A DNA stretch of 64,000 nucleotides from NCBI GenBank assembly GCA_001938485.1, contig MQRK01238430.1:99490-163489 (forward strand), written 5' to 3'. The notes beneath the pieces are model-generated. The model searched no databases. It was not told the origin of the DNA and saw nothing but the letters and a program-made list of their open reading frames with translations. Shown in pieces: positions 7,946 to 58,700 of the stretch. Each line of letters begins with the position of its first letter. Within the stretch, counting starts at the first letter, position 1. This stretch comes from Girardia tigrina (taxonomy: Eukaryota). A program made the translations under genes and the position numbers.

Positions 7946-8370
7946 AAATTTATATATTTAGATAAAAATTAATTTGTTTTGTAAACTTGTAAAAGTGATT
8001 ACTACAGTTTTTATCCTCAATTTTCGAATTTTCTGACTTTTTATGTGATTCTGATAAATTGACTCAATTTACGCCTTCATTTCGCATTTATTGAATTGAA
8101 ACTTGATTCCATGATTAGGTCCATATTTATGAATTTCCAAATCCTTGTTTTTTTAACTGATACTTTGGCAAATTATATATATATATATATATATGGTAGT
8201 GTATATAAATGTGTTTTTCAAAAGATTTATTTTAAAAATTCTAAAAAACATGAAAGAATTAATGATATTTAAAAACATGATTTTAAAATGTAAATTGTTT
8301 TACAAAAAAAATGTAATTTATTAGGATATTTTAATTTTTTAGGATATTTTTAATAATATAAATATGCGTA

Positions 8371-13753: not shown

Positions 13754-15060
13754 ATTAGGTGAGTTTTAAGGGTTTTTAATTCGTAAATTTTGAACGATCG
13801 TCATTTGCTAAATACTTATCGGATTTAAACGAAATATGCATCATTCGAATTACCAGGTGTCTTACCAAAAGAATCGACGCGATACAATAGGAATTATTCC
13901 GTTATTAAATAAATATAGTTATCTGGATTCGACGAAGTCCTCAAGGCTGTTTTTGCTGGTTCTTATTGGTAAGGGTAAGAACGAGAAATTTATCGAAGTA
14001 CTTGAAAGGTGGTAGTCGATTGACGCAAAGTCTGGAAAGTATGCCTTCTTATACGGTAGGGTATTACGACGTATATTGACCGGTGCCGACTGCAGTTATG
14101 ACTATTTTCGGTACATTTGTGATCTCCATACAGTAGGACTGTGATGTAATGTTTTAGTCTGATTTCAAAAAGTTGAAATAAATCACACCAGCTGAAAACT
14201 ACTATATTGTAACCATAGTCTATTTTACCACGTTTTTATTAGCTTGCTTTCTTGTCTGTTTGTCTGTTTGTCTGTTTGTCTGGAACAAATCTTGCGATTG
14301 ATTTTTCGACCACTTTCAGTCATCCAATTGAGCTGAANNNNNNNNNNNNNNNNNNNNNNNNNNNNNNNNNNNNNNNNNNNNNNNNNNNNNNNNNNNNNNN
14401 NNNNNNNNNNNNNNNNNNNNNNNNNNNNNNNNNNNNNNNNNNNNNNNNNNNNNNNNNNNNNNNNNNNNNNNNNNNNNNNNNNNNNNNNNNNNNNNNNNNN
14501 NNNNNNNNNNNNNNNNNNNNNNNNNNNNNATAAAAACAACCACGTTTTTCAAGCATTACCAATGCACTAAAAAGAGGAAAATAATTTTTTTCTAGGCATG
14601 TGCGAAATTTTATACCTAACCAAAAACGTGGGGCATAGAAATGATCGACTGTTACTAAAAAGCAGTAAAGAGGAAATAGTAGTTACTAATAGCAGTAATT
14701 CAGAAATCCGCCCCACGTTTTTGGTTAGGTATAAAATTTCTCACATGTCTAGAAAAAAATTATTTTCCTCTTTTTAGTGCATTGGTAATGCTTGAAAAAC
14801 GTGGTTGTTTTTATAAAAAAAATTTTTTATTAATAATATTATTATGGATTTTCAGTTATGATACACAATTCTTTCTTCTTTAAACTGAATGATTCGATCT
14901 AAAGAAGTGACCTCAAAATGTGATAAATTTTGCAACCCAAATTTCGAATCTTTTTACCTTTCAAATGAGTTTAAATCATAAGTAACAGAATGGTGACTGA
15001 TACCTAGTTCGTCCACAACTCTTTTTACGAACCTTTTAGGATGGATAAGCTTCCCCAGGG
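13754..15060 (-). mobile_element. Old degenerate mariner interrupted by a Helentron-like repeat
   Basis: Minus-strand remnants VDELGISH, TMVTI..SAGVIYFNFL, AYFPDFASIDYHL (YSPDLAPSDYHL-like), on both sides of 14223-14832. Confidence 0.65.
14223..14832. mobile_element. DINE-1/HINE-like (Helentron-associated) non-autonomous repeat, copy A
   Basis: TTTTACCACGTTTTT start, (TTGTCTGT)n microsatellite, inverted AAAAACGTGGT near the other end, GCATT-ggt-AATGC hairpin; near-identical to 59401-60445. Confidence 0.6.
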
Positions 15061-18849: not shown

Positions 18850-19512
18850 GATGAGCATTGACAGTGAAAAAGTGTATTGTCACCTAGAATACATCAGTCC
18901 TGAAAGTTTCATGTCGCTAAGTGAACGGGAAGTGGGTGAATTTTTGATCGCAAGATTTGATGCATCCAGACAGACAAACAAATGAAACATAATAAAAGCT
19001 TGTAAAAATGAGTAATAGTATGATATTCTTTAAAGCAATCAGTGATACAGAGCCCTACATCACACTCTGCACATTCAAATCTCGATTCAGATATTTTCCT
19101 TTCCTTTCGAACAGATTGACTACAAACAATGCATTTACGTTGTTTTGCTCTCTTTCCAGTCTCTGATGGTACCAATGAAGGGAAATGCCGATCAATCAAT
19201 CTCTTGGGATGCTCTCCTGCATTTGTTCTTCGTTCCGTTCCCAGATCTTTAGCATGTTCCTGAATAATTTCTCGTATGAGTTGCAGTCTAAATCCTCGCA
19301 ATTGAGGTATTTTGCCAGTTTTTATCATATAAAGTATATATGCATTCAACGTAGAAATATCTAGAAGGTAGAAGAAAATTTTTTGGCGGGAATATTGTAG
19401 AATTAATTGAAAAGGGGATATATATGAATAAAAGTGAGAAACATTTAAAAATGTTTGCCGTCCTTTGAAAAAAATTGTAAAACGTATATATACGTCTGCT
19501 GCCTTTAAAGGG
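18850..19512 (-). mobile_element. Internally deleted piggyBac
   Basis: TTAA-CCC terminus at 19516-19510; KIFFYLLDISTLNAYILY and the Cys-rich C-terminal domain (KCIVC...ECAECDVGLC...CF.EYH). Confidence 0.85.
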
Positions 19513-19776
19513 TTAATAATACCTAAACCTAATTTCATAACACTAGATTTTAAATCTTTAAGTTAAAAGAAATCTGTGTTTGTAAATTATAGTAGATTAA
19601 TTTTTTATTATTTAAGAAATCATGCAGAAAAATTTTAAAAAGAGACAAACGATATTACTAAACACAATTATTTAAATCCAAGATTCCAATATTAAAATTT
19701 TATATTTCCCAGTTAACACCACTTTTTTGATTCAGCCTTTAGATCAAGATATGATCGCCACTTTATAAATTTATTA

Positions 19777-29361: not shown

Positions 29362-32300
29362 TCACCAACAGTTTGCTGGGGGATCAATTTCGAAAATAAT
29401 ACGTGAACTACAAGCTGCTCCAGCTCTCAATAGCAATACTCGAGCTATGACAGAAATGTGACAGAAGAGTAAATTAAAATAATTAAAATAATTATTACCT
29501 TCTTCATTGTAATTGTGAAAGTCTCCTGGGGAACTCCACTGAATAATAAATATGTAGCGTGGAGATCTAGAGCCTCTGAAGACTACAACATCAGAAGACC
29601 CAGCAATTATTAACCCGTTAAACTTTAGAACCAGTGGAAATAAATCTTTCACATATCCAACAAAATTAGTACAATTTTTAATATCATACATGTCAAGTTG
29701 GAAAAGACAAAAATCTAAAATCACCAACTGTTAAACAGGTTTAATTCAACTACAACAAATAATTAAGTTTTAATTGACAAAAATAAATTTATTTTATAAA
29801 AATTCAGGGACTGTGACTTAAAATAATAAAAATAAAATTAAAATTTTAAATTAGTGAGAAAATTATTAAATAAAGTATATTATATTAAATTATGGTTTAT
29901 CACTAGAGCAGAGATCAGATGTTTCTTTTGTAGTTGTATTAGGTTCAAAAATACAGCCAAATGCACGCAGAACCATGGAAATACAATCCATGGATGGTAT
30001 TTTCTTACAGGAAAGCCGACAAGATCTCGGAGACCGAAGAAATCCGAACCAGGCTATCGGAAGGCTGCTAGATACTCTTTAGTTCGGGTGAACCCTCTTA
30101 AGAGTATACAGCCAAATGTTCAATACCATTGAAAGATATGTGAGGCCTACAAATTACTCATAAACTGCGCCAGACTTAACATGGAATTAAAAAGTCAAAG
30201 CTCAGTATTAACAACATCAATATGAGGTTTACAACATTTATTAATATTACAAGCGCATTCACTATTTGACATCTCTCTTGATCAATTTTTTCTGAGTTCA
30301 AATTAATTATTTTCAATAAATGAAAATCTGTTAATAAAAATTATTAAATTATAAAGAATCTAATTGGTTAAAATTAAATTACATTAAAAAAATAAATAAT
30401 ACATTCAAAAATTATTTTAAATCTTTTTACTTTAAAATTAAATTAAGTTATTTTTAATTAGTAAGAATCAAAGAAAATATCAATCATCCATCTGTGTATG
30501 AGAGGCACAATCCGAATCAACATTCTACATGCACAATATCAATACACAATTCAAAACATTCCTCACACTCAGGGTCTTCAAAAATTAATAATAGAGATTT
30601 CTTTGAAGACAAAAATCTTTCTAATAAATGCTTATTTCATATGGAAATAGTAGTTATTGAATTAAAGCCTTAATAGTACATAAAAATAAGTTTTAACTTT
30701 TAAAAATTGTTGGGTTGTAGTTGGAATCATTATTTTTATTTATACACATACTTAGCTGTAGGTAATCTATTAATATCTATTTTAATCTATTGCATAAAAA
30801 AATTCCCAAAAATATTGAAAATATTCAAATATATGAAAAACCTTATATATTCGCAATCAGCTAAATTTTATTTGTTTCCGATTATTTTTTTTTGAATTTT
30901 TGAGCATAGTTTATGTCGTTATTTTGGTTCATAATCAAAAAATAAGTACAATTTTAAAAATGTATTTTATATCAAAATAACTATATTTAAACAAATATAA
31001 TTAAATATTTAATATTAAACAATATTTCTTTAATATTAAAAGTTCAGGCATTTAAATTATGCCTACACACCTCCCCTCCTAGATCGATAAAAGCTGGCTT
31101 GGGTTTGTCGAGTTAAATGTTTTCTTCTCTGTCGCGTCTAGATTGTGATAACCTTGCCGTTTTCTGAGCGGCGTACTACATCGAAAGGTCCTTCGTATAC
31201 TGCTTGAGAAGGACTCCTGAGTTCTTTTTTATCCCCACTTATTTGCATTTCAGAAGATCCTTGGGACGGAAAAATTTTATATCTCAGTGACTCTTAAATT
31301 CATTGGATGAATCTAGAATATCTACAACGGATTGATTAAAATTATGCAGAATAACGTCTCCCGTCAGGTGTGTAGGTACCTAGTAAAATCTGGGACGGTG
31401 AAAGCCCGGAGCTGTTTTATTGTGTTTCGAAGTCCCAGTAAAACTCGGGATAGTATTTTCAGCCATTCTTTTTCTACATCGATTGCTGTAGATCTTAATG
31501 GTTCTTTCAATGTCCAATGGAATCTTTCTTTCTTTCCATTGTTCTGTGGGTGGTGTGGGGTTGTGTGAGGATGTTCGATTCCGTACTGATTACATAAATC
31601 TTTGATATCTGAAGCAATGAATTGCCTCGCATTATCGGTGATGACGTGTTCTGGTGTGCCGAAACGAGATATCCATTCTTTTTCAATTACTTTGATTACT
31701 TCTTTAGCTCCGATTTCTCGCATTAGGAAAGCTTCTACACCGCCGGTGTCGCGATCTATTGTGGTAAGAAGGAATTTATTCCTCTATTTTCTCCTTCAAT
31801 GGTCCGACCAGATCGATTTGGACCACTCTAAGTTTTCCCAGATTGGTGATGATACCATGTGGAGTTCTGGTGTGTTTATAAATTTTATTTGCTTGACAGT
31901 TTTAACAGTTGCGAACCCATTTTCGAATCTCGGTCTTCATATGGTCTTTGCGCATGAGCGAGACACGATTAAGTGAAGAGCAATCTGATAACGTGTTTTT
32001 GCTAATTGAAAACTTTTACCAATACCCCGCTTTTGGGTAACAGTTAAGAAACTGTTACCATTAGCAATTTTTAAGTCACGTAACGTTTAGTCAATAATTT
32101 GATTGTTGCATTTGCTTCTGAATGGCATAAGCTGTGAAGTCTAGAAAACTCAGAGTATCTGTGACATTCGGGTAGAAAAATCCTTGGAGTTTTTGTTGAC
32201 TTGTCTACGAGTAAGCCCTCTTTTGTTTTGTCTATTACCAGAGAAGAATTAAAATGTTTTGAAATGATGTGTCTTTCTTTTGATCTTTAATTAGTTCTTG

Positions 32301-35300
32301 AAGGGTAATATGAAACAATTCTTTGATCTCTTCGTCCTCATATTGTTTGGAAAGAAAATCTGCCACTACGTTTTCTGAACCTTTAATATAATTTATTTCC
32401 ATATCGAACTGAGATAAGAATTGAATCCATCTCCATTGGCAATTTGAAGGACTTTTCATTGTTTGCAAGTAAAGCAGTGGTTTGTTGTCTGTTTGTACTC
32501 TAAATCCGCTGTCCTCCAAGTAGTGTTTAAAGTTTTTAACCGCAAGAACTATTGATAATAACTCGCGTTCAAAGGTAGAGTACCTTTTTCCGTGGCTGTC
32601 AGCTTCCTGAAAAAAACTGGTTTTATATTACCTTCAGGATTTTCTTGGTTGAGACTATTTCCCACTGCTGTTCCTGACGCATAGGAGCATAAAACAAAGA
32701 GGGTATGGAAATTTGGTAGGCACATTGTTTTGATGTTTCTAAGCTTTGATTTGGCTTCTTGGAAGGCTCTTTCGTGTTTTTCTTCTCAGTTGAACTTGGT
32801 CCTTTGTTTACTACTCTGAGATACTTGTTCGTGAAGTGGGGCTAAGGTTTCTGATAATTTCAACATTAACCACTGGTAGAATATAACGGCTCCAATGAAT
32901 CTTCGTAGAGCTTTGGTGGATCTCGGTGGTTCCATTGCATCAATATTCAACATATTAACACCGAGTCCAGATACATTGAACCACAAGAAATTGAAGTCTG
33001 ATTGATTCCATTTGCACTTGTTAGATTTGATTTTTAGTTTAGAATTCTTCAATCTAGTCATAACTTCTGTACATGTTTGCGATGGTCGACATCGTTTTTA
33101 GAGAATACGATGATATCGTCAATATACGCCATTGCATAAGTTTCACATCCTCGTAGTATTGAATCGATTGTTCGCTGGAACGTTTATAATGCATTTTTCA
33201 ATCCGAAAGGTATAAAATTGTATTCGTAGAGGCCAAACGGAGTGATAACGGCTGTTTTGTGCTTGTCAGCTTTGTCGATTGGGATGTGGTGATATGCTTT
33301 CTCTATATCGATAGTAGAGAAAAAATTGCATTTGGATATCTGATCAAAAATATCGGTTATTTTGGGAAGAGGGTACCGACACGGCCTGGTTTTTGCATTT
33401 AAAGCCCTGTAATCGTCGCAAGAGCCGAATGTATCGTCCTTCTTCTTGACTATCACTAACGGAGAAGACGAATCGCTGTTGCTTTCTCGTATAATACCAT
33501 CTTTGAGTAGCGCTTCAAACTGTTTCCTGATATCATGCATGGTGGTGTTTGCCAGACGACGAGCTCTTTGTGTCGATGGAGGACCCGAAGTTTCAATTGT
33601 TAATGAAGGTAAGTTGATCAGTTGGTGTACTTCTGTCGGGTTTCGAAACAATTTCCGGTTTTTGCAGTCTATCAGGAGATTAAAATGGGCCAAGAAATCG
33701 GAGCCCAAAATTGGTCGGCGAACATCAGCGGCTGTGAATCTCCATTGAAAATCTTCTTCCAATCGCGAGATATGGAATTGTAAGACCTTTTCACCGAATA
33801 TTTTGATTTTGGTGTTATTGGCAGATATTAATTCACAGCTCCTCGATGTGGAGTCCGGTTGGAAGAGATTTCGGGGTGCAACGCTGATATCAGCACCTGA
33901 ATCAATTAAAAAATCAAATAACCTGGCACTTGACCTCACCGGAACGGAAAATATTGCGTTGAGCTTCGGTTTTGATGTGAATGGTCAATGATAATATCAA
34001 GGGGCCTCGGTGTTCGACCTCACTGGGTCCCTGATTCTTTTCCCGAAGGATTTCCGGATATCCAAGAGCATGGTTTCTGGCATTTCTTTGCTAATCGACC
34101 AAATCTTTGGTTGTATAAACACAGCTGTGGTTTATCGGTTTGAAGTTTACTGAGGCGATTTTTTATCCAGTTTAATTCGATTTTCATCATTTCAATAGTT
34201 TCATTTGAATGCTGGATTTTCGGTTCTATTGCCGAAATTCGTCTTTCGTCAAGCAAGAAATGAGCATCGGCTTTAGTGCTGAGTTCTTCTAGATTGAGCG
34301 TTTCGTAATTTATTAAATGATGTCGGATAGAAACTGGAAGAGCAGCTAGGAACTGTTGTTTGAGGAATTCGCATTTATCAAGATTAACGTTGGGCTGGAT
34401 TACTCGATAGCATTTCTTTAGTTCTTCCAGTAATCGGGTAGGTTTAAGTTGATAGTCCATTCCATGTTGTGTAGCGCGAAGCAAGGCCTGAGCTGCTGAC
34501 ATTGAGTATTCCTTGAATAAAGCCTGTTTTAACTTCTCGTAAGGTGACCGCATAATGGATCCATGGCTGTCGTCAGTGTTTCGAGGATGTCAGGAGGCAG
34601 GCAGGTCAGGTTATGAAAATATTTGCCAGTTCGAAAGCGTTTTCAACTTGGGTGATCCAGTGTACTATATTCTTAAAATATGGTGGAATTATGACTTGGA
34701 TGTGGCTGGTCTCAGCCACGCTTCTGACACCAGTGTCGTTATTTTGGTTCAAAATCAAAAAATAAGTACAATTTTAAAAATGTATTTTATATCAAAATAA
34801 CTATATTTAAACAAATATAATTAAATATTTAATATTAAACAATATTTGTTTAATATTAAAAGTTTAGGTATTTAAATTATGCCTACAGTTTAAAACAAAC
34901 ATAATGCATTTGGACAAGAAATTTCATATCAGCTTTCTTTGTGTATGTAACATAATAATAAAAACTGTTAATAATGGAGTGCTTAAATGAATTTATATGT
35001 AATGCAGTTGTTTAAATAAATCTCAAAAACCGCGTTATTTGAGTTTTCTCTTCAGTGATAATGAAAAATAGCTATATTGTAGAAAATTTTAAATTGAAGC
35101 TTGGTTCAAACTGAAAAAAATAAAAATAGCTTTACTAATATAATTTTCTGGTTTGCTTATGTTTGCTTAGGATAATTTTTAAACAGTCATTCATATAATT
35201 CGTGATAAGGAGCTAATATGAATAAAGCAAAATGTTCTCTGTTGACTCAATGCAACTATATTAAGCCCTGTTTTTGAATCTTTTACTACTAAACATCATT

Positions 35301-41300: not shown

Positions 41301-43116
41301 TACACACCTATTATTTTTTATTCAGGGTATTAAGAACACCAATATGACTTAACATTTTTATTATTATAACAGGCTTGATTGTTATATATTTAAATTTTTA
41401 CTCAAAATTTATTGGATAAAAATTAAAATGATTATTATTTATTTAAGAAATATTAATTCAAATTATTTATTTAAAAATTGTAAATAAAATTAATAAACTT
41501 ATTTAAAATTTTACAATTATTTTAAATTAGAAATAAATTTAAATCTTACATATTTTCAGATAATAAAAATTAAAATATTAATCAGCCATCTGGGTAGGAG
41601 AGACACATTTCCAAATCAACATACAACATTCAAACAAAAAACATCAAACATTCAAAATATTCCTCACACAAGGCATTGACCAATTACAATAGGTCATATG
41701 TAGTCAAAATAAAATAATTTTTGGTAAAAATGTTTGAAAAAAATTTATTTTTTGATACAGGGGCTGACCATAATTGACGTTACGCGATTTTAACAGATTT
41801 CTAAACCCCCTTCCCTCTCGTCATATTTCGTTATAACAAGCCTGAACCCCCTTAAATATGATGTCACAAAGCTCTGACTCCCCTTTACATTTTCCTTTTG
41901 TTATCATATCTCATTTTTTTCACAAAACTAATATTAAACTTCTGTCTCATTATCAAATCAAAGGATTACTGCGACATATATCAACAATAGTTTGTAATAA
42001 TGAAGGCTGATCTTCCTCAATTCTGGGCTTACCAGGTTTGGCCCTGACGTTCATTGAGTTACAATTGACAGCAATTGAACACTGATTTTAGGGTAACGTG
42101 ATCTAATTAACAATGCTTACACAGATGTTGAAATTATCAATATTAATGCCTTATTTTCGGGAGACGAGTGAATTCGTCATACCTTTTTTTATAGTACAGT
42201 GCGGAAGCCGAGTTTACTCGTTTTCTTTCGCGAAGTGCTAAGGTGCGGCAAACTTGTAAATAATGGGCTCTAGACAGGTGTGACGGGGGGCGTTATATAA
42301 TGTCAGCGGTATCTAATCTATCTATCTGCCGATAAAATGAAGTTGAGACGCCTCGATTTGGCGGGAAAAGCTCCGACTACATAGGGTTAACATCACATTT
42401 ACATTTTTCCTATGCTCTGCAATAAAGCTCTTCCTCTCTTTTAGACCATGGTCTTTAATTCGTTTAGAAAGATGACAGGTAATCTCTCTAATGTAGGTGA
42501 CATCGCACTTATTACATTTATAGTCAAAAACAATATTAGAACAAAGAGTTAAAGGTGTAATAGATTTATTACTGGACCTATTTTGAATTTTATGAGATGA
42601 GAAATTATATAATTTTAGTTGCTTTTAACAATGCATTTTTAAAAGTTTTTAAATTCTTCAGATATTGTTGAATGTCAAAGTGACTACATATATTGTAAAT
42701 ATAATATAATTAAATAAATAAACCGATAATTCAAAATCGCAAATTGTCTTTCCAAATAAAAAATACTTTACCAGTTTTGCCATTCCGAAAAATTCCCCAT
42801 TCCCGTAAGCTTTAATGACGCCTAAATTTGTCATAATTGTGTTTCTAAACTTTTGAAAAGTGCTCAATGCATTATTATAGACAATCAAAACTAATGTTTG
42901 TTCGGTCGATCGACAAAGATTCTAAATGAGGAAGTTTCATTTGATTTTTCAACAGAAATTAGTAAATAATTTACACAGTTTTCTGTGTCGACCATCGGTT
43001 CCGATTTGGTCCATCCGCAAATGTTTGAGGCATTTACTGATATTTATTTGGAAACTAATTAGGGTTTTGTTCTTTATTTATGCATATGTATTACCTCCCG
43101 AGTCGAATAAAGCCAT
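29362..43116 (-). CDS. Tandem DUF1330-like (dimeric alpha-beta barrel) protein, 238 aa, 6 exons: 43116-43095, 43036-42975, 42921-42772, 36609-36426, 29714-29499, 29444-29362
   Basis: All five introns are GT-AG and phase-compatible (58, 53, 6162, 6711, 54 nt); 717 nt open frame. Two repeats match the DUF1330 pattern: IKAYGNGEFFG...CIEGQFP..WGLGILSFDNKENA and LVLKFNGLIIAGS...VFRG...YIFIIQWSS..DF..Y. Confidence 0.85.
30914..34887 (-). mobile_element. Complete compact Ty3/Gypsy provirus (3974 bp) in intron 4 of the DUF1330 gene
   Basis: 154-bp LTRs 30914-31067 and 34734-34887 (4 mismatches), 5-bp TSD GTTTA, PBS TGGTGTCAGAAG (tRNA-Leu type), PPT AGGAGGGGAGG; gag, FLIDSGAD protease, RT, RNaseH and integrase fragments. 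Confidence 0.97.
36066..36315. mobile_element. piggyBac-type terminal repeat, copy 1 (copy 2 at ~42157-42390)
   Basis: Shared GACGAGT.AA.TCGTC, GCCGAGTTTACTCG, CTAGACAGGTGT blocks; copy 2 ends ACATAGGG-TTAA. Confidence 0.6.
38617..39418 (-). pseudogene. Decayed duplicate of exons 1-3 of the DUF1330 gene
   Basis: Exon 1' 39418-39397 (MALFASE), exon 2' 38775-38714 with donor GT>GG, exon 3' 38672-38617 internally deleted (LGTIKAFENGEFCRKAKL); ~570-bp insertion in intron 1'. Confidence 0.85.
40370..40991 (+). mobile_element. LTR-like repeat with central gap
   Basis: Purine run AAAGGGAG then TGTGAAAAATCG ... CGTTTTTCA inverted ends; GC-richer interior. Confidence 0.4.
41759..41890 (+). mobile_element. 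PIF/Harbinger-type MITE end
   Basis: AGGGGCTGACCATAATTGACGTTACGC...CCCCC is typical of Harbinger MITE termini. Confidence 0.45.
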
Positions 43117-46732: not shown

Positions 46733-49700
46733 ATGTTTAAAAAAGTAAACAGATTTTATTTCAATAAATATTAATTTACAAAACGCTGTTTTCAGGTCCG
46801 TTTTATGAATAGTTTTCCGAACAAATATGTGATAATTATCGGAGTCGTTTCTTCGTGGATTTTATATTACAATCATTTGAATTTCTTAGGCATTTTGATA
46901 TTAACTGTCATCGTATTATTGTTGTATATCAATGAAAAATTGATTGGATCTAATAAACCGCAAGTGATTCCTAAAATAAATACGAAAACCGGTGAAAGTG
47001 CCGAATGGCTCAATACTCTCATTCAACGATGGTTTTTTTATGATAATAACTGATTCTATCATTGGAACATTTCTCGGATTTCAGGTGGATTTTTTCCATT
47101 TCTGGATCGGAGAATTACTTTCGGAAAAGAATCAATAAAATTCTTAAAACACACACGCCTGAGTTCTTCGGTATATATTTATGATACATATGTAAATCTT
47201 TATGTAACCATGTATTATTTATTTATAATAAACAAAATGTAATTATTATATCGACAGCTAAAACATCGACATAAAAAATAGAAATACAAAGAAATGTTTT
47301 AATGATAATAAAAATTTAAGATTAGAAAATTCTGCGACTATAATCGGCATCCTACGGCATTATGGATGGTACTTTTAAAACTGTTTCAAATGCATTTTAT
47401 CAGTTATACACTATTAATGGTTCTGTTGGCAATGAAGATTTGCGAGTGTTACCATTGGTATATTCGTTAATGACAAGCAAAAGAGAAAATAACTACAGGG
47501 TTTTCCAATAAGAAGTGTTATTTTGATATTCAAAGAAAAATCCATTTTTATAAGGTCGTATATTTATTACATTATAAAGAGAAAGGTGTGTCGTTAGTAA
47601 TGGTAAATAACATCAGCCAAATGACCACCACGACCACGCCTACAGGACCATATCCTTTTCATGAAATTTTCCATAACCAAATTGCAAAGTGGCTGCCCTA
47701 TGTCCTCGATAGCCTCACGAATTCAATCTTTGAGATCTTGAATCGACGCTGGGCTTTTGGCGTAGACCTTCTCTTTCACGTGGTGCAAAGAAAGAAGTCA
47801 CAAGGTGTCACATCACAAGACCTCGGTGGCCAATTGTGATCACCTCTTCGAGAGATAACACGATTCAGAAACGTTTCCCGTAAAAGATCAAAGGTTTCGT
47901 TGCTTTTGTGGCACGTAACGCCGTCTTGTTGAAAGTAAAAGTGGTCCAGATGTATATCATCCGATTCCGACCATAAAAAATTAATAATGATCTCTAGATA
48001 GTGTAATCCATTCACCGTAACTTTTGCTCCAGCCTCATTATCGAAAAAATAAGGTCCATTGACCCCGCCGCACCAAACAGTCACACATAGAGGATGAAGA
48101 GGCTTTTCAACAATAAATCTGTGGTTTTCAGAGCCACAGATGCGACAATTTTGCTTGTTGACGAAGCCACCGAGGTGGAAATGGGCCTCATCATTAAGGA
48201 TGATTTTTTGATGGAATTCCGTATCATTTTAATGCATTTTAAGGACCCAATCAGTAAAGACACGACGTTGTTGATGATCGACCGGCTGGAGTTTTTGCGT
48301 TAACTGAACTTTATAAGCCCTAAGACTGAAATCTTTATGCAAAATATGGTGTAAAGACGTTTGTGGTATGCCTAATTTCAAAGAACGACGATGAATGGAC
48401 AAACCTGGGTTTTCTTCAATACTTTGGGCTACAGCAGCAATAAACTCGGCTGTTCTTGAGCGATGTGCACGGATTTTATTCTTCAAATCATTAACTTGTC
48501 CCAACAGCTCGAATATTTTCACCAAATTCTGTATTCCGGTCCTACAAGGTGCTTCACGACAACCAAAAAATGTTCGAGTTTTAAGAACCATCTCTGCCCA
48601 AAATTCACCATTTTGTATTGAATTTTAATAATTTGAAGGCGTTATTTAAGCGTGTGTCGTTCCATTTTGATTAATGGCGTAGTTTATACTTCTCAAATGT
48701 CAAAAAATGAGATCTGCCGAAATAGTGGGCTATTCAAAATAACACCTCGTTTTGGATATATTGGATATATTTGGATATATATATTATTTAATTTAATTTA
48801 ATTTAAACACACCGCTTAGGTGGATTCAAATCAAATGTGAGACACGTTTCCAACCCGGTTGGAAAAGGCTTCATATTCCAGCGATTTGTTGCTTTCGCGT
48901 CTACCTTTGTCGCGCTGTCGGCAAAGAGTTACGCTCTCCAAGAGAGTCAACTGCTTGTGGTGTTAGGCAGTGCCATCTTTTATTAAGTCATCGTAAGAGA
49001 TGTAGATAACGGCATACCTTCCTCTTTATAATGTAATAAAAATCCGATCATTTATCTTATAAAAATGGATTTTTCTTTGAATATCAAAATAACGCCTCTT
49101 ATTGGAAAACCCTATATAAAACGGCTTTTTGAAGATTTAATAGATTTGGCATTAGAAAATGAAATTAATCTAAACTCATCTGTGATTATGACAGATCTAG
49201 AACTTCCGGTAACAAATGCAGTTAGAGTAGAATTTCCTAAAGCTCAAAATAAAATATTTTTTTTTCATTTCGGTCAATGCTTTTGGAAAAAAATTCAAAG
49301 TAACATCAATATTCACCGTGATGCTAAAGAGTTGGTGAGATGGTTTAAAAAAATATGTACATTTCACCATTTCTGTGGTCTGTATATGATGTAATTCACC
49401 AAGGTATTCTAATAAACACAAAATATCGTCGAGTCTTGGCACTGAAGATGGGAATGTATTATTAGGCTTGTCAATATTTTTCTGTCGATGTTGTGACTTG
49501 TCGATATTTTGGCCTGTGTCCAATTATTATATATCACTAAAAATGTATTTATATAATTGATTTAATATAGTGAAAAGCGAAGAAACATCTTATAAGTAAA
49601 CATTTATTACTTCACAATTTATGACAGATTTCATTCTTATCAGAACATCATCAGGTGCATCGTCCATTGACAAGAACAGATTTATAAAATTATCAAAAAA

Positions 49701-52700
49701 ATGAATCCAAAAATGAGTCTGTATCAAACACAGTAAATATTAGTATCTCTAACTAAATATCTTAAGCGTTTTAAGTATATTTTTAAAATATATTTATAAA
49801 ATATTTGACAAATATTCTGTGTTCGATACAGACTCCTTTTTGATTTCATTGTGGTATTTTATAAATGTTTTATCAATGGACTATCCACCTGATGATGTTA
49901 TGATAAGAATGAAACATGTCGTGAATTGTGAAATAATAAATGGTTACTTAAAATATATATTTATATGTATATTAGACCAATAACTCCATCTTCCTTTTCC
50001 AGTACCCACAGGGAAATCCCGCTATAAGTGACCGTTTCTTGTGGATTGGTTCGGGAAAGAGGGGAAAATTAATTAACAAAACACTATAACTAATTAGATT
50101 TGTTAAAATAAATACACATATGTATTGATAATTTAATGCCCTTTCAATCAATAAAAAGATTCTCAAGATCTCAGTTTTAATTGGCTATCCTTTATTTATA
50201 CAACATTCAAATTAACAAATGGTTCTAAAATATTTTTCGCCTAACATTCTTAAAAAGATATTTTATTGTTCTAAATCCACTTGTAAGCGGCGTTTTAAAG
50301 ATTGGATATTGCTTTCATCAAAATCGAGTATTCTGTTATACCATATGATATATCATTATAGATTTGTTTATTACCGACACAACCAAAATATTTCTGCTCG
50401 TTACAGATGAAACAAAAAATATCAATGGTTTTATCAATGACCTATTTTTTACGAATAAGTACAGCAAGACTCCCTTTGCCAAGAAAAATAAGATTTTTAT
50501 GTTTTAAATTCGACTTTAATTCTTGAAATTTAGAAGCATAGATAAATCACCTTTCATTTCTTGACTCAGTTTCTTCTTTATATGATAGGTTTCAAGCCTT
50601 TTAAAATTCGATCTACCGTACTTGTACTTATATTTATTTGTAATTTTTCTAAATTTGACTTTTAAATCTGATAATCTAAGTAAGCAATTCTCGTCAACCT
50701 GAGAAATTACTATTTCTTTAAGTTCCATCTTTAATTTAAATTGGAAATTTCGTTTTTTCTTACTTCCAACAATTCTCCAGTAGCCTAAACTGTTCAACAA
50801 TACGATATACTGAGTTGTAACTTTAGTCATACATCACAGAAATAGACTTCAACAGCATTATAATAATCTATTTATTGCGTGTTTTTCATTCTCGTCAGAA
50901 ATCTTCTTCTGTTTTTTTCTGAGATCGATGATTTGAAATGATTGATTTTGAAATTATATATAAATATATATAAAAATCAAGAACGCTATTAAAATAAAAT
51001 TTTATTGTCGCAATATATTTCGGTGGATTTTCCACCATCTTCAGGCTGCATTAACAACAATTTCACTGTTTTATATACAGCAAATTGATGATTATGCAAA
51101 CATCTTGTGTAATAACTAATTAAATATTTTCAACAAATTGGAAGAGCGACTTGTTTGAACATTAACCCTACAAATACCATGTGGGAAATAGTTACATATT
51201 ATACCATGCATGGACAAATATGTCCATAAAAGTAATCAAATAAAAAGAAGCAAAAAAATTTGTTTTAAATAACAAGTCCTAATTAATTTTGAAGTATATT
51301 CAATCTGATTTGTCCACAATTATCACAAAAAATCTCGATTTTCGAATGTTTCTTACAAACAAAGAAATCACAGCTACAACATTTTGAATTAATTCTGCTG
51401 GCTTTATGTTTTGTTTCATAATCGACTGATGTGTCATAACATATCTTGCATCTTACGCGTAATACTTGTTTACTACGAGAACTCGATTCTGATATTTATA
51501 TCCATTGTGTCATTAATGATGATGATGATGATGGTAATGTGGAGGATGAAGATGAATGAACGATACAATCAATAGAAAACACAATATCTCGGTGTAGATT
51601 TGCCTTTTGTCGTCTACTTGCGTTTCGCAAAACCAACGAATGAGCTAACTCTCTTAGAAACAATTTTCTCTTATTCGGATTTTTGACTTGCCAGTCAGGA
51701 AAACTTTCGATAAATGTGTATGCATTTACACCTACTATATCCAATAATGTATAGAAAAGTGAAACAGGCCATCTAAATGTTCCTCTTTTAGTACTGTAAT
51801 GGCGGGTAATTTTATCGATTGTGTCAACACCCCCTTTAGTCATATTATAGAACGAGTTGATTTCCGGTTTACGTTTATCGCCATCAAACGTTCCAATAGA
51901 CTGATGATGAGTTGATATGAATAATACTGATTTTCGAGGCTTTGCGTTGTATGAAAGGAGTGTTTTTGGTGCTGAAGTAGAGATCGCTTTTGAAAATAAG
52001 AATACAGATGAGTACAGCTCTGTTCCGCTAGTATTTTTTATAATATTAGGAAGATGCTTTCTGTTAGATTGAATAGTTCCGACCATTGTTAGTTTAAAAT
52101 TGTGCCATAGAATATCTGCTAAATCAATAGATGAATAATAACGGTCCATCGTTATATTACGTGAAGATCCTTTGATCACCTTAACCAGTCTAATAACTAT
52201 GTCTATAGGTTTATTGGATTGTAAATCGGATTTGCCAGCATATGGCTCCATTGCTAAAACATAACGATGCTTAGCGTCTGTTATCATTCGAATAAGTATA
52301 CCGTATTTACCGGGCTTATCCTTCATAAAAATCTTGAATGGGCACCTTCCACGAAATAGTGAGAGCATCTCATCTATAGTCGTACATTCGTAAGGCTTGA
52401 AAAGTCTTGAAAATGAAGATGCAATTGATTCAAACAGATTTCTTATGGGAGCAAATTTATCAGTCTTTCTTCTTTCTTGTCTGGTACTCTTTTCATCGAA
52501 TCGCAAATGCTTTATTATTTGAATAAACCTATTTCTTGACATCGCGCCCCTGTAAAATGGTCTACCATTTAGTTGTGACCATAAATCTGTAATCGATGGA
52601 GTATTATCATTATTGCTTCCCATCATGTATAATAGTCCCATAAAGGTGAGCAGATCGATTTTATCAATCTTATCATTTTCTTCTATTATATGTTCATTCG

Positions 52701-55700
52701 TATTTTTGATGGTTATATCAAGGACATCCGTTGACATGAATTTACGGAAAGCATCTTCTGCATTTATAGCCTTACCGTCAGGTGTTATGCCCATATGATC
52801 TTTTATTACATCTTGAATATATCTTTTTTGATTTCTAAACTGCTTCTTGAATTAAACCTTACCAGTTTTTGACACTATTTGTTTGTTTGTCTCTTCTAAT
52901 TCTTCGTCTTCTCCTACTTCATCTTCATCGTTCAATTGATACTCTTTCTCATTGTCTTCAACTTCACTTGTCTCATCTTCTTCTCCTGATAAAATTAAAT
53001 CATTTTCTCCCGCAATATCAATTCTAAAATAAATAAAATAAATCAGTGAAATAAAATAAAATCAATATAAAAAGATAATATATAATATATAAATTATATT
53101 TAATATATAAATCAATATCAATGAAATAAAATAAAATCAATAAAATAAAACACAATAAATCAGTTAAAAAACTAATTAAAACCCCTTGCAAGATAAATAT
53201 GGACAAGAATCGGATCAGCTAAATGCACTTTCAAGTCCGGGACCGCAATAAAATTACACTGCTTAAAGCATTTTCAAAGATTTTCATTTAGTTTTAAAAT
53301 TTTAAGATTTTCATAAGTATGAACATTTTTGTCCATGCACAGTATTTGTAGGGTTAATGGACGGATTAAGTGATTTAATCAATAATGCTTCACAAGTAAC
53401 TCTTTCCCAAAAATTTTTTAAATTACTGGATTCATGAATTTAAAATTAACGGATTCAGGAGCATGGACGATTGGGTAATGGGAGTAATATTGCTGGACAT
53501 ATGAAGGGTTGTAAATCGGAGGTGAAAACAACTAATTTTAAAATATTGTACAGTAATTTTAAAAATTATTGGGAAAGTTACTTGTGAAATATTATTGATT
53601 AAATCACTTAATCCGTCCATTAATGTCCAAACAAGTCTCTCTTCCAATTTGTTGAAAATATTTAATTAGTTATTACGCAAGATGTTTGCATTTTCATCAA
53701 TCTTTATATATATAAGTAAGCGAAATTTTTGTTAATTCAGCCTGAAGATGGTGGAAAATCCACCGAAATATATTGCGACAATAAAATTTGATTTTAATGG
53801 CGTTCTTGATTTTAATGAAAATTTACCATTATTTTTTAAATTTCTTATTAATAAATATATACAAAGTTCTTTTTCAAATATAATCGTAACTTTTTTACAA
53901 ATAAATCTTTAGAATTTATAAAAATCGATAGAATAACATTTGGAAACACTACTCCAAATGCATCTGCTATAAAATTGATGGATTTGTCCGCACCGGATAA
54001 AAGGCCAGTGTATTTGACCGAAAATTCTCTCAGCAAATTGATCAGTTTTATCAAAGGAACAAGATATTATTCGATTGTTTTGGAATTCGATGTGAACTTT
54101 CGTCTGACCGGTACCGAGATCTCTGTGCTTTGTAAACATAAAAAGTTAGTTTATTGATTTAAGTGTACTTTTATGTGATTTATTGAATGAATGAGTTTTT
54201 CATTTTTTTACACGAAGAACTTTATCTTTTTTATTTATATTATTTTTTACGTGATCTTTGTGAATAGTTTAAGAAATTCGTATAAATTTTCAAATTTCAA
54301 AAATATTTAAAAATATATCATAAAATATATCAATTAAAAAATAAGCATTTTAAAATTAGAATAAAATAAGTTTGTTAGAACGCAAGATTAATATATACAA
54401 TACTTTATTCAAATCAAATTCAAAATTGTGTGCAACACTCAATTACTTAAATTATTATTTAAATTAATATTTAGTTAAATTAGTTTTGAGAGATTTCAGA
54501 AAATTCTAGAACCGATTGTTAATATTGATTTTTGTAAATTAAGTATTAAGGTAAATTATAATAATGAAAATTCCTCAATAACTTCATTATCCAACACGAA
54601 AATATGGAAGGTAACATATATGACATTAAAGTGAAGTTTGGAAAATGACTACAGACGAAGACGGACTAAAATAAGCATTGAAATAGATAGACACTCAGAA
54701 CAAAAAATCTGTAGATGCATATTTATCGGAAATTACTTGGATATGTGGTGCACAAACTTGCTACGATATAGGATACATATGAATGTAGGATACATAAACA
54801 CAAAACCAAGATGACAACCAATAAAATTTGAGCGAGACATATAAAAGGAATATTGAAAGATGTTATTGTTGCTAAAATTGATAACAAGTATCGTGGTTCC
54901 AAACATTAAAACAACATATTTTGTATAACATATTAACAAGTGTCATGCTGGTAGTAAAAAAGTTCATAATTATCTCAAAAATGATTTTGATAAGGATAAT
55001 ATGCGAGTGATAGTAAAAGAAATAGTAGTACTATTATCGTACAATGTGTAGATTGGGAAATGTGAATGGATACCACTACATATTGGCCATAATCGACCAA
55101 TTAGAAGATGTATTAGTAAGAACACAGTGATAAATCAAGATAAAAAATCGCACTAAACGTCCTACTAGATTGATGGATATGGAAATTTAGATCACCAAAA
55201 GAAGTTCACATGGACAGAGGGAAAAATTTTAAGCATCGCTGTTGAAAGATTCATTCAAAAAATTCGAAGTAGAAATAGTTTCCTCTAGTCCTAATCATCA
55301 CAATACAAATTAAATCATGGAAAGGTAGTTTAGAACAATTGAAAATGTGTCCTGTAATCGCATTTACAAAAGAACTTTAATTATATTATTTATAAATAAT
55401 AAGTGATACAGAAATAATAGTGTTGCATTTATATAAATATAATATTTACACTGATAATAGAAAATAAGAAAAATACTTCAAGTAATAACAAAATAAATTG
55501 AAAACAATTTTTGCATAGATTAGTTGTTCAAATATTTAAAGTTTCATCATTTTATTTTTTGTTTATTTGTTCAGTTAATAAATAACTCTCGTCTTTTTAT
55601 ATTTAATAAATTCTAGACTAAAGCATCAAATTTCGATAAATGAATAATAATTTATTATTTTTTATCATTTTCTGGTAATTCGAGAAGACTATTTTCAATA

Positions 55701-58700
55701 AAACAGACTATAAATAAAAATATAAAATAAGAATTTTATTTAAAATTTAGAATTAGCATTGTGATTGACATCGTTATATAATATTGTTAATTTAATTTTA
55801 TATTTTGATCAAAAACGTATCTAATCAAAATTCTTCAAATACAAATGCAGTGACAATAGAATTTTTCTGAGATTGATGAATAATATCTATCAGTCATATG
55901 TGTCAATTATTCATCTTCCAAAAAAGTTACATCAAAAATTAATAAAATATCTTTTAAATGTGCAGCTAATGATTTATTAATATTTCTAGAGGCTCAATTA
56001 TTATACGAGAAAATTATAAAATTAAATTTGAATAATTATTGTAATTAGTGTAATAATAGAAGCATAATTTAATCAGAAATATAATTCAACCTAATATTTT
56101 CAATTAATATAATGAATTTGTAAAGTTTATTTTCAAAGATTAAATTTATTTATTTTAATGAAACGTCCAAAAAATTTTTTTAATAGTGAATCTGTTTACT
56201 GAAGAATGGTATTACAGAGTTTTTAAAATGTTTTCTTAGAAAACAAATTCTAAATAACAATTATCAGTATAAATCCGAAAAAAAGATTTTGTCTTATAAA
56301 TTGTATTAGTTATTATAGTTTTGGTGTGATTTTAGATATTTGCCTCGAATAGTCAACTGGATTAATCTGTTAACCCGTTATACCCTCCTTGGACGTGAGC
56401 TATTATGACATAGCATCTGTATAGATGCTGTTTATAATCATTACAAGAAATTATGTGCTTTCTATGATCGTGTATCTATTTATACCCAACAACAAAAACG
56501 TTTTCTATTTATCAAAGCACTGTGAACATAAATACTTTAATATAGTTGAGGATAGTTGTATTTGTACATTGATTTTAGAATCATTAAATGTTATCATAAA
56601 TGCTTCACACGCATCGCCCTTGCTATAATTATTAGGTTGGTCGAAAAATAATGGCGGTTTTGGGACAAACTTCAAAGACGTGCAAATTCACAGAAACAAA
56701 AGTTTATTAATCAAAGTATGAACCGTTGGCATCAATACATTTTTGCCANNNNNNNNNNNNNNNNNNNNNNNNNNNNNNNNNNNNNNNNNNNNNNNNNNNN
56801 NNNNNNNNNNNNNNNNNNNNNNNNNNNNNNNNNNNNNNNNNNNNNNNNNNNNNNNNNNNNNNNNNNNNNNNNNNNNNNNNNNNNNNNNNNNNNNNNNNNN
56901 NNNNNNNNNNNNNNNNNNNNNNNNNNNNNNNNNNNNNNNNNNNNNNNNNNNNNNNNNNNNNNNNNNNNNNNNNNNNNNNNNNNNNNNNNNNNNNNNNNNN
57001 NNNNNNNNNNNNNNNNNNNNNNNNNNNNNNNNNNNNNNNNNNNNNNNNNNNNNNNNNNNNNNNNNNNNNNNNNNNNNNNNNNNNNNNNNNNNNNNNNNNN
57101 NNNNNNNNNNNNNNNNNNNNNNNNNNNNNNNNNNNNNNNNNNNNNNNNNNNNNNNNNNNCCTGGATTCAAGAAACTATAGTGGATGATTCCAGCATCACA
57201 CCACCAAACTGTCACCATAACCTTACGGGGTGTTAGTTTCGGTTTTGAAAAGTGTTTCGGTACTTCATCTTTGTCCAATCACTGTGCAGATCGACGTCGG
57301 TTATCATACAGGATCCATTTCTCATCACAGGTAACAATACGATCAAGAAATGGATCGTTCTTATTGCGAAGATGATTGGCAGAACAAATTTCATAGCGTC
57401 GGTTCTTTTGATTTTCATTCAAATCATGTGGAACCCATTTATCAAGTTTCTTGATTTTTCCAAGTTGTTTTAAATGATCCAGGACTGTTGAATGACTAAT
57501 ACCAAACCCATCTGCAAGTTCTCTGATTGTTGTTGTTCACAGCAACTGGACGACCATGACATTCTTCATCTTCAAGGTTTTCATCTCCATCAGAAAATTT
57601 TCGGAACCATCGTTGCACTGTTCGCTCAGAAACTGTTCCCTTGCCAAACGCTTTATTGATATTGATAGCCGTTTCTGCTGCTTTACGACCCAGTTTAAAT
57701 CCGTACAAGAAAATTGCTCGAATTTTATTTTTTTTCATTATTAATTTAGCACCGTAAATATTCTAAAAAATAACAGCAATATGTTAATAATGGCTATAGG
57801 AATATACAGCTAGGCATAAGATTTCAAATAATATCTAACACTAATGCATTTAAACTTATATACATATCAAAGTAGATAAACAAAGTATAAAGCTCAAAAA
57901 CCGCCATTATTTTTCGACCATCCTAATATTAAACCGTCAACACAGAATTTTAAAGTTACCTAAATCTTATATTATTATACGTTTCTTTAACTTAGTTATA
58001 TAGGGATTACATGAACATCACTTTGGTATAAAAATCCTTAATATACCATTATTGGTTTTTGGGAACATTTATAACAAGTTTTCTACAATTTACAAAAAGG
58101 ATTACACATTAAAAATTAAAAATCTATGAAATAAAAATTGTTTTAAATAAGTTTTACTCTTTACTGCTTGATTTTTTTATTTTAATAAAAAAAATATATA
58201 ATATAGGAAATGAGAATGCGTTTAAGTTTTGATAAGCTAATTAACGATCATTAAAGTATTTAAGTAATCAAATGCATTTTAAAGGCGCCTAAATTAACAA
58301 TCTATTGTTTATATTTTTAATATTAATTACCGCTAATTAATAGAACTTTAAATCCATAAATAAACAACGTAAATTATACATTTTCTTTATCTTTTATGTT
58401 TGTCCTAACGATTTTTATATTTATCGCAGGTATCCAGAAGAAAATAAAATTGTTTTGAAAGATTTCTTCATCAATGGAATCCTTAACTTGAAGGTTACCC
58501 TTGATGCTGGAATTCCTTTTCCACATATTAGTGAACTCGCTCTCTATTTCAGTGAAAAACATATGTGAGAAATTATATTTTAATGTAATTTTTACTTCGT
58601 CAATTACACATTTTTTTATTTAAAATGTTGTCTATTTTTGATAATTAAATTACACTTTTAACATTTAACTTTAGATTAATTAGTTACTTAATGTTAATTA

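Follow-up and report, generated by a model that had tools for sequence, protein, structure and literature searches.

Penelope/Poseidon-type elements, such as Penelope of Drosophila virilis, Pen2 of Adineta vaga and PAc of Anolis, carry an inverted pLTR and a tail and encode a reverse transcriptase (RT) followed by a C-terminal GIY-YIG endonuclease. Inverted 5'-truncated copies and tails of 30-40 bp are common (PMC8557442; PMC3846280), with 30-40 bp being the published range for the tails (PMC8557442, PMC11167929). Cleavage of both target strands and the use of two RT start sites have been shown in vitro for the anole element (PMC11167929). Hammerhead ribozymes on opposite strands, 100-700 bp apart, have also been reported in Penelope elements (PMC4209133, including the legend to Fig. 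S4A). These belong to a minimal class for which a monomer gave no cleavage in vitro and for which a dimer is reportedly needed (PMC4209133).

The locus described here lies in a 64,000-nucleotide stretch of DNA from Girardia tigrina, referred to as the window. It consists of two Penelope-like 3' ends arranged head-to-head, each with a predicted hammerhead ribozyme, and one arm is interrupted by a piggyBac element (Table 1). It shares with Penelope/Poseidon-type elements a parent with RT and C-terminal GIY-YIG, head-to-head 5'-truncated copies, a probable one-sided tail and a short candidate duplication in AT-rich DNA. It differs in that it comprises two 3' ends and no full-length copy, in that one arm is split by piggyBac, and in that the family is unnamed. 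The inverted arms, the tail and the opposite-strand hammerheads are all already described for Penelope elements.

Non-LTR retrozymes are likewise short, non-coding-looking repeats with a type I hammerhead, and have been proposed to derive from Penelope pLTRs (10.64898/2026.07.22.740005). They are head-to-tail tandems, whereas the locus is an inverted pair that retains endonuclease coding sequence. The retrozyme-type array of head-to-tail units, each with a hammerhead, is absent, and this assignment was rejected.

Architecture of the insertion and its parent family

Both arms contain the GIY-YIG tail, the UTR and the minimal type I hammerhead of one Penelope-like element. Removal of the piggyBac and one TTAA from 50973-53813 leaves 649 bp, in agreement with the preliminary description of a palindrome of about 650 bp, unrelated to the palindrome at 49587-49956; blastn gives no cross-match between the two at E<1e-3. 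The excised insertion is predicted to fold as a single long hairpin (-361 kcal/mol), and the two arms differ by 22 events over 264 aligned columns. The palindrome is not perfect to its center, given the 84 nt that are unique there. The head-to-head junction lies near 53448, and within the inner left arm 53429-53438 has been swapped for a short near-copy of the 5' start of the right arm (9 of 10 positions identical between 53428-53437 and 53451-53460).

Table 1. Coordinates of features at the locus (window positions)
Feature	Position	Strand	Details
Candidate left target-site duplication	50960..50972	+	13 bp, TA-rich; abuts left arm; 12/13 identical to 53851-53863
Outer left (inverted) arm	50973..51165	-	GIY-YIG end, stop codon 51116-51118, UTR, hammerhead, predicted first 22 codons of next ORF; right-arm alignment; tblastn to P0009 374-389
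Left minimal type I hammerhead	51010..51046	-	Core C3 at 51044; predicted cut after 51012; motif scan; identical to right copy
TTAA target duplication, left copy	51162..51165	.	Sequence
piggyBac element	51166..53353	-	2,188 bp; 12-bp terminal inverted repeats beginning CCCT
piggyBac transposase frame	51283..53027	-	Two in-frame stops; Cys-rich C terminus; possible 5' intron
TTAA target duplication, right copy	53354..53357	.	Sequence
Inner left arm, GIY-YIG tail	53358..53448	-	tblastn 92% to P0009 351-375
Unique center	53449..53532	+	GIY-YIG portion confined to longer right arm; 93% identity to P0001 over 53450-53584
Right arm GIY-YIG tail up to stop codon	53533..53669	+	2-nt frameshift deletion near 53575; empty TTAA site 53620-53623
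UTR, stop codon to hammerhead	53670..53739	+	13/70 columns differ between arms
Right minimal type I hammerhead	53740..53776	+	2-bp helix I, CUGAAGA, extra U, 6-bp helix II, GAAA, palindromic helix III; predicted cut after 53774
Probable Penelope tail	53814..53850	+	37 bp; right arm only; between arm end and candidate duplication
Candidate right target-site duplication	53851..53863	+	Pairs with 50960-50972

The palindrome does occupy the originally proposed interval, 50973..53813, but the insertion probably extends to 53850. The left arm has no tail, and the sequence points with moderate strength to a one-sided tail of 30-40 bp (here 37 bp) together with a short target duplication (13 bp with 1 mismatch). 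A comparable 13-mer match arises in 20 of 6177 control windows and in 7 of 992 AT-rich ones, with the duplication length freely chosen. The candidate duplication sits in low-complexity sequence.

In Penelope-like elements the pLTR takes in the first codons of the ORF. The right hammerhead overlaps a predicted ORF start codon, the ATG at 53748, and the frame opened there continues through the probable tail without a stop. The predicted cut is 26 nt downstream of the ATG; in PAc too, the hammerhead overlaps the start codon and is cut at this spacing (PMC11167929). The predicted ORF start gave three matches by phmmer over 1.84 billion proteins, all unrelated (a pair of cadherins and a single repeat protein with no Pfam match), and nothing by pairwise BLAST against the N termini of two long relatives. 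In a shuffle test of homology, one of 23 relatives reached P=0.04, which is not significant after multiple testing.

The preliminary description assigned the arms to a Penelope GIY-YIG tail and called for identification of the autonomous parent. Both are answered by a cluster of proteins, P0001-P0011, that match Pfam RVT_1 and GIY-YIG and are 93% identical to the spacer fragment. In P0009, RVT_1 at 18-116 and GIY-YIG at 293-372 indicate a single ORF with RT and then C-terminal GIY-YIG; such an ORF is a property of the parent cluster and not of the locus itself. The right arm matches the last 73 residues of P0009 and the left arm the last 39. Pfam finds no GIY-YIG match in the 45-aa and 30-aa fragments from the locus; it is through the parent proteins that the domain is assigned. 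The family proteins are mostly 96-99% identical to one another, the nearest long relatives are unnamed and 51-57% identical, and the sole named match is 28% identical. Inspection of P0001 and P0009 by eye reveals no Cys-rich linker separating the RT from the endonuclease; the absence of such a linker is one mark of the Penelope/Poseidon clade, to which the family may belong. A scan of bacterial and archaeal genomes for the parent DNA returned 33 pattern matches and no relatives.

The interrupting element resembles the piggyBac superfamily in its TTAA duplication, CCC...GGG ends, short terminal repeats and DDE_Tnp_1_7 transposase with a Cys-rich tail (Pfam E=4.9e-66). A 12-bp subterminal inverted repeat starts at 51207 on the + strand and 53339 on the - strand. 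The element here departs from the superfamily in its two in-frame stops and in the distance of its relatives: none exceeds about 50% identity across the greater part of the length, and the best are 45-50% identical. No start codon was identified in the transposase frame, and the catalytic aspartates (DDD) are putative, assigned by motif. The suggested order, Penelope and then piggyBac, is supported: piggyBac sits in Penelope sequence, the TTAA is duplicated, and the single TTAA of the uninterrupted right arm is the empty site. The two stops give piggyBac an age of about 2% (95% interval 0.25-7.4%), an interval too wide to add anything to the structural order.

The minimal hammerheads

In sequence, the minimal type I motif is present in full: CUGANGA, GAAA, an NUH site, helix II with G10.1-C11.1 and a palindromic helix III. 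The right hammerhead lies 73 nt past the stop codon, in the pLTR position downstream of the ORF that is typical of Penelope-like elements, an arrangement mirrored in the left arm. A relaxed scan of the whole window produced 13 rows at 11 sites, of which only these two combine a perfect CUGANGA with a 6-bp stem II. The scan admits an extra nucleotide before helix II, and a strict motif without it misses both hammerheads. The Rfam hammerhead models give no match at E<=1 in the window, nor at E<=10 in 53650-53900; these models may miss minimal hammerhead motifs. The closing pair of helix II has a predicted probability of 0.94 and 0.995, and that of helix I, which is only 2 bp long, 0.02-0.04.

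As in the minimal type I motif of Penelope elements from metazoans (Cervera and de la Pena 2014; PMC4209133), CUGANGA is accompanied by one extra nucleotide, G10.1-C11.1, a 6-bp helix II and GAAA. In comparison to the Drosophila examples in that work, the palindromic helix III is identical to that of D. rhopaloa and D. elegans, the 2-bp helix I is shared with D. virilis and D. rhopaloa, and a U is at the cut site. The hammerheads here differ in a 3-nt loop II and a GC/GC helix I, and are predicted from sequence. The match of helix III and the 2-bp helix I to Drosophila Penelope motifs (Fig. S3, PMC4209133) would, by analogy, place the cut after 53774, as had been predicted. A cut after AUA (53772) was rejected, as no 1.1-2.1 pair would be left.

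The cores are on opposite strands and so cannot form the dimer reportedly needed by minimal hammerheads. A read-through transcript is predicted to lock the ribozyme in a long duplex, and no ribozyme function is therefore expected at the locus.

Origin of the inverted arms

The preliminary description noted drift in the arm sequence adjacent to the ribozyme. Drift is present, but it is one-sided, with 13 of 70 columns differing upstream of the ribozyme versus 2 of 37 downstream. The real outlier between the arms is the UTR just upstream of the hammerhead (Fisher P=0.0008 versus the rest), in particular a hyperdivergent patch at 53692-53737 with 12 events in 46 columns. Substitutions are not spread uniformly, with a UTR excess by scan (P=0.0012). 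This patch stands against uniform neutral decay. The left UTR folds as a separate hairpin (-15.2 kcal/mol, z=-2.4), unlike the right one (-3.2 kcal/mol, z=0.9), and both versions keep a TATA-like motif; the UTR sequence could possibly serve as a splice acceptor or a TATA/initiator. The patch may be a local mutation cluster or may reflect two different RNA templates.

We favor, with good confidence, an origin of the arms as head-to-head 5'-truncated 3' ends, likely from one insertion, followed by entry of piggyBac into one arm and, likely, neutral decay since. The RT/GIY-YIG protein would nick both strands of a TA-rich target, about 13 bp apart. Reverse transcription from two nearby RNA start sites would then leave a 37-nt tail on one arm and none on the other, both copies would halt inside the endonuclease gene, and the truncated ends would be joined with short templated filler. 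Finally, piggyBac would take the TTAA in the left arm. Priming on both strands is inferred for this locus by analogy to in vitro work on a different element. Selection on the active element family, rather than on the locus, would account for the conserved ribozyme design; the identity of the two cores here would be chance at low divergence, made striking by the mutation cluster upstream.

The term fold-back names one of two possible origins. In a true fold-back, which we regard as a less likely but credible route, the cDNA snaps back and self-primes its second strand, such that the arms are identical at birth and a later template switch scrambled one UTR. This departs from the favored origin solely in the making of the second arm, and the geometry fits equally well. 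Self-priming has been proposed for head-to-head junctions (PMC3846280), in the right UTR the patch is a TA run that nearly forms a palindrome, and template switching at inverted repeats reportedly yields multi-nucleotide changes (PMC8604942). However, termination 37 nt before the first end would call for an additional step, and the 84-nt unique center with templated filler is not a clean junction palindrome.

It is also conceivable, if rather unlikely, that the arms were born different, from separate RNA templates that were two family variants or two repeats of a tandem transcript. The UTR difference would then be older than the insertion, and the core identity would reflect selection that the active element had undergone earlier. 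One version of this idea has piggyBac already sitting in the copy that served as donor for the left arm. The differences do concentrate in the sole non-coding, non-ribozyme segment, the two UTR versions fold differently yet retain the TATA-like motif, and the anole protein, a predicted dimer, carries out extension on both strands (PMC11167929). Against this, there is one synonymous difference where 6.8 are expected at UTR-level divergence (P=0.009), the family proteins are nearly identical, and neither UTR version has a second copy, or donor, elsewhere in the window. That each arm was copied from a separate RNA molecule, with priming on one or other of the nicked target strands and from a different one of the two RT start sites, is similarly unlikely. 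Among the papers retrieved on Penelope and twin priming, none addressed this idea in its title or abstract opening; most subscription papers lay outside the search.

Ribozyme conservation and the meaning of the locus

The preliminary description found the cores and stem II identical and took this as a hint of constraint. The identity stands, with 0 of 33 columns differing (53742-53774 and its mirror), 0 of 37 for the whole hammerhead, and an identical run of 52 nt (53738-53789) enclosing both cores; the constraint is not supported. Substitutions do show a nominal deficit in the core (P=0.02-0.05): versus all other arm columns, nominal P=0.031 for the hammerhead and 0.020-0.046 for the 33-column version, the value of 0.046 arising from the one hyperdivergent UTR patch. 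The deficit is not significant against the coding tail, in which 7 of 120 columns differ (P=0.15). The 52-nt run has P=0.14 under uniform decay, or 0.054 and 0.039 with other arm boundaries. Counting clustered changes once gives P=0.11-0.15, and correcting for the motif having come to attention through an intact copy raises P to 0.21-0.46.

Further identical runs between the arms, of 38 and 36 nt, fall in dead coding sequence. Over-long identical runs also occur in two of six non-ribozyme dispersed repeat pairs in the window (P<=0.04), so the uniform null is too lenient; four of the ten alignments, three self-alignments across a loop and the target itself, were set aside from this control. Eight of the 11 cluster members include the C terminus; measured against these, private amino-acid changes number three over 39 codons of the left arm and two, plus a frameshift, over 73 codons of the right. 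One of eight coding substitutions between the arms is synonymous, in keeping with neutral change (neutral expectation 0.20, P=0.50), and coding decay looks neutral in both arms. The UTR and hammerhead differences are counted arm versus arm and are unpolarized. In the palindrome at 49587-49956, the 32-nt ribozyme has three differences, one in helix II and two that break the helix III palindrome; the 13 invariant core positions are nonetheless intact in both arms.

That the host maintains both cores, or that arm-to-arm gene conversion homogenizes the tract, with RNA active here, is therefore very improbable: the perfect identity and its nominal P are outweighed by the comparison with the coding tail, the correction for ascertainment, the other identical runs, the lenient null, the lack of a dimer of the required kind, the weak helix I and the inactivity of a same-class monomer in vitro (PMC4209133). 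Identical ribozyme cores do not show selection.

In short, the locus is an ordinary nested transposon relic of described architecture, likely decaying, and gives no evidence of a host-maintained ribozyme. It is of modest value as a worked example, in that the uninterrupted arm is the empty site for piggyBac, and the tail and duplication bracket the whole insertion. It also adds a new Penelope family, as yet unnamed, in which a hammerhead of Drosophila type overlaps a predicted start codon. If the arms do derive from two RNA molecules, then head-to-head Penelope palindromes would preserve a trace of priming on both strands from two templates, and genome-wide comparison of arm versus arm would separate self-priming from dual priming in Penelope transposition. 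If the divergent UTR is a subfamily difference, such palindromes would offer a cheap genome-wide test of how Penelope makes inverted copies.

Anatomy of a split inverted insertion

At this locus, two arms carry the 3' ends of one Penelope-like element and run from the centre outward through the endonuclease tail, a stop, about 70 nt of UTR, a hammerhead motif and 22 open codons, the ATG of which overlaps core position A9. The left arm is interrupted by a piggyBac with two in-frame stops in its transposase frame (Pfam DDE_Tnp_1_7, E=4.9e-66). Removal of the piggyBac at its TTAA leaves 649 bp, matching the palindrome of about 650 bp in the preliminary description. The empty site is visible in the right arm, where the same sequence has a single TTAA, and therefore the piggyBac entered Penelope sequence. 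The proposed order, Penelope and then piggyBac, holds in this sense; that the piggyBac inserted at this locus rather than in a donor copy is likely. A stop-codon clock gives about 2% for the piggyBac, with an interval (0.25-7.4%) too wide to inform where insertion happened.

The right arm extends further at its 5' end, leaving a unique centre, and the junction near 53448 carries a 10-nt filler that resembles the start of the right arm itself. Beyond 53813, the end first assigned, the reading frame stays open for 37 bases, followed by a 13-mer matching 12 of the 13 bases that abut the left arm. Such a match occurs in 20 of 6177 control windows and, among those that are AT-rich, in 7 of 992, frequencies uncorrected for the free choice of length. 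From the sequence, the 37 bases are read here as Penelope tail and the 13-mer pair as a putative target duplication; given that tail, the insertion without the piggyBac would be 686 bp.

The 45-residue frame is 93% identical to P0001, the one protein matched among two candidates and a member of a cluster of 11 unnamed proteins, of which P0009 contains Pfam RVT_1 and GIY-YIG. Both arms encode the very C-terminal end of this protein, and longer relatives give 37 matches with identity up to 57%. The autonomous parent, a suggested check, is thus identified at the protein level as the P0001 cluster, over the C-terminal 389 residues. As expected, the parent DNA has no relative in the prokaryotic genomes scanned.

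Coordinates of the insertion and of other features in the window, an AT-rich (GC mostly 20-39%), animal-like repeat region with transposon fragments throughout
Feature	Position	Strand	Observation
Left arm	50973-51165, 53358-53448	-	
piggyBac	51166-53353		Two flanking TTAA copies; 12-bp terminal repeats
Possible intron before transposase frame	53028-53185	-	AT-rich, piggyBac 5' region; GT and TTTTAG ends
Unique centre	53449-53532		
45-residue frame	53450-53584		
Right arm	53533-53813	+	
Empty site	53620-53623		
UTR patch	53692-53737		
Possible promoter or splice acceptor, by analogy with other Penelope pLTRs	53709-53741, mirror 51045-51080		Both arms: TATA-like motif ~30 nt ahead of helix I; YAG directly before core
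Predicted cut	after 53774		
Neighbouring hammerhead palindrome	49587-49956		144/180 columns identical between arms; apparent one-sided extension, about 30 bp; no Penelope protein match within
Its candidate duplication	49543-49554, 49955-49966		11/12
Related Penelope endonuclease fragment	42391-42612	-	55% to P0009; stops at TTAA, then CCCT at 42390; probably where a second piggyBac-type element entered a Penelope, other end not found
Weak Penelope-like fragment, C-terminal	56535-56630		E 0.01 to 5e-4 (both weak fragments)
Weak Penelope-like fragment, N-terminal	8039-8149	-	Adjoins TA run
Gypsy-type LTR retrotransposon, broken frames	31364-34589	-	gag, protease/RT, RNase H, integrase-like (by eye)
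U4 snRNA	31944-32086		Within the Gypsy-type frames
Tc1/mariner-like element	47494-49116		Long terminal inverted repeats; apparently in MULE-like transposase fragment (by eye)
Short fold-back, probably MITE	14530-14814		Arms of 128 bp with 90% complementarity; lacks a hammerhead motif
piggyBac-like transposase, C-terminal portion	18909-19562	-	By eye

The hammerhead motif and its divergence

In both arms the motif shares with the minimal Penelope hammerheads of PMC4209133 a 6-bp helix II, G10.1-C11.1, a helix III that is palindromic and one additional nucleotide behind the first core. Fig. S3 of that paper shows the same helix III and cut triplet for D. rhopaloa and D. elegans, and the 2-bp helix I is shared with D. 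virilis and D. rhopaloa. The predicted cut lies 26 nt from the ATG, the distance reported for an anole element (PMC11167929). Helix II is predicted to be stable (0.94, 0.995) and the closing pair of helix I unstable (0.02, 0.04), with a predicted cost of about 2.2 kcal/mol for the hammerhead-constrained fold. An Rfam search gave no hammerhead match. One minimal hammerhead monomer failed to cleave (PMC4209133), and the anole motif required its element's protein (PMC11167929). The cores are carried by opposite strands; folding prediction gives a single long hairpin for the excised insertion, in which both would be buried.

Between the arms, 22 events were counted over 264 columns: 7/120 in the coding tail, 13/70 in the UTR, 0/37 in the hammerhead and 2/37 downstream. 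The reported identity of the cores and stem II was confirmed (0 of 33 columns differ, P=0.046, or 0.020 with ragged ends included). The accompanying hint of constraint fared less well: substitutions nominally avoid the hammerhead relative to all other columns (P=0.031), but not relative to the coding tail (P=0.15). When clustered changes are counted once, P is 0.07-0.15; for the 13 invariant core positions taken alone it is 0.31; and conditioning on one intact copy, applied because the motif is noticeable only with an intact copy, gives P=0.21-0.46. A 52-nt stretch is the longest identical run (P=0.14, or 0.054 when ragged ends are included); further runs of 38 and 36 nt fall in dead coding sequence. 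Over-long runs also occur in two of six non-ribozyme dispersed repeat pairs, an imperfect control given that copies may differ by lineage. Both arms have decayed, with private replacements in the coding sequence of each relative to the 8 of 11 parent proteins that have a C terminus. One of eight coding substitutions is synonymous, in line with neutrality, a count that treats the 22 codons following the ATG as coding. In the neighbouring palindrome, which is older, 3 differences fall within the 32-nt ribozyme, all of them outside the invariant core positions. In short, there is no evidence for constraint at this locus, and the preliminary interpretation is supported in part.

Within the 46 columns of the UTR patch there are 12 events (scan P=0.0012); by folding prediction, a hairpin forms in its left version (z=-2.4) but not in its right. 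The patch reflects either a clustered mutation event in one arm or arms from different templates. Two broadly diverged templates are disfavoured because synonymous divergence is low (1 observed, against an expectation of 6.8 from the UTR rate; P=0.009), which does not argue against templates differing in the UTR alone.

Origin of the two arms

A single insertion probably made both arms. By analogy with PMC11167929, nicks would be placed on both target strands and two start sites of the reverse transcriptase would leave the tail on one side only; the truncated ends would then be joined. A self-primed fold-back making the second arm, as put forward in PMC3846280, is also compatible with the geometry at this one locus. 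Inverted 5'-truncated Penelope copies with a tail are described as frequent (PMC8557442, PMC3846280, PMC8969392), and hammerheads on opposite strands, separated by 100-700 bp, are on record (PMC4209133). The architecture has already been described for Penelope elements, and this locus adds one more example.
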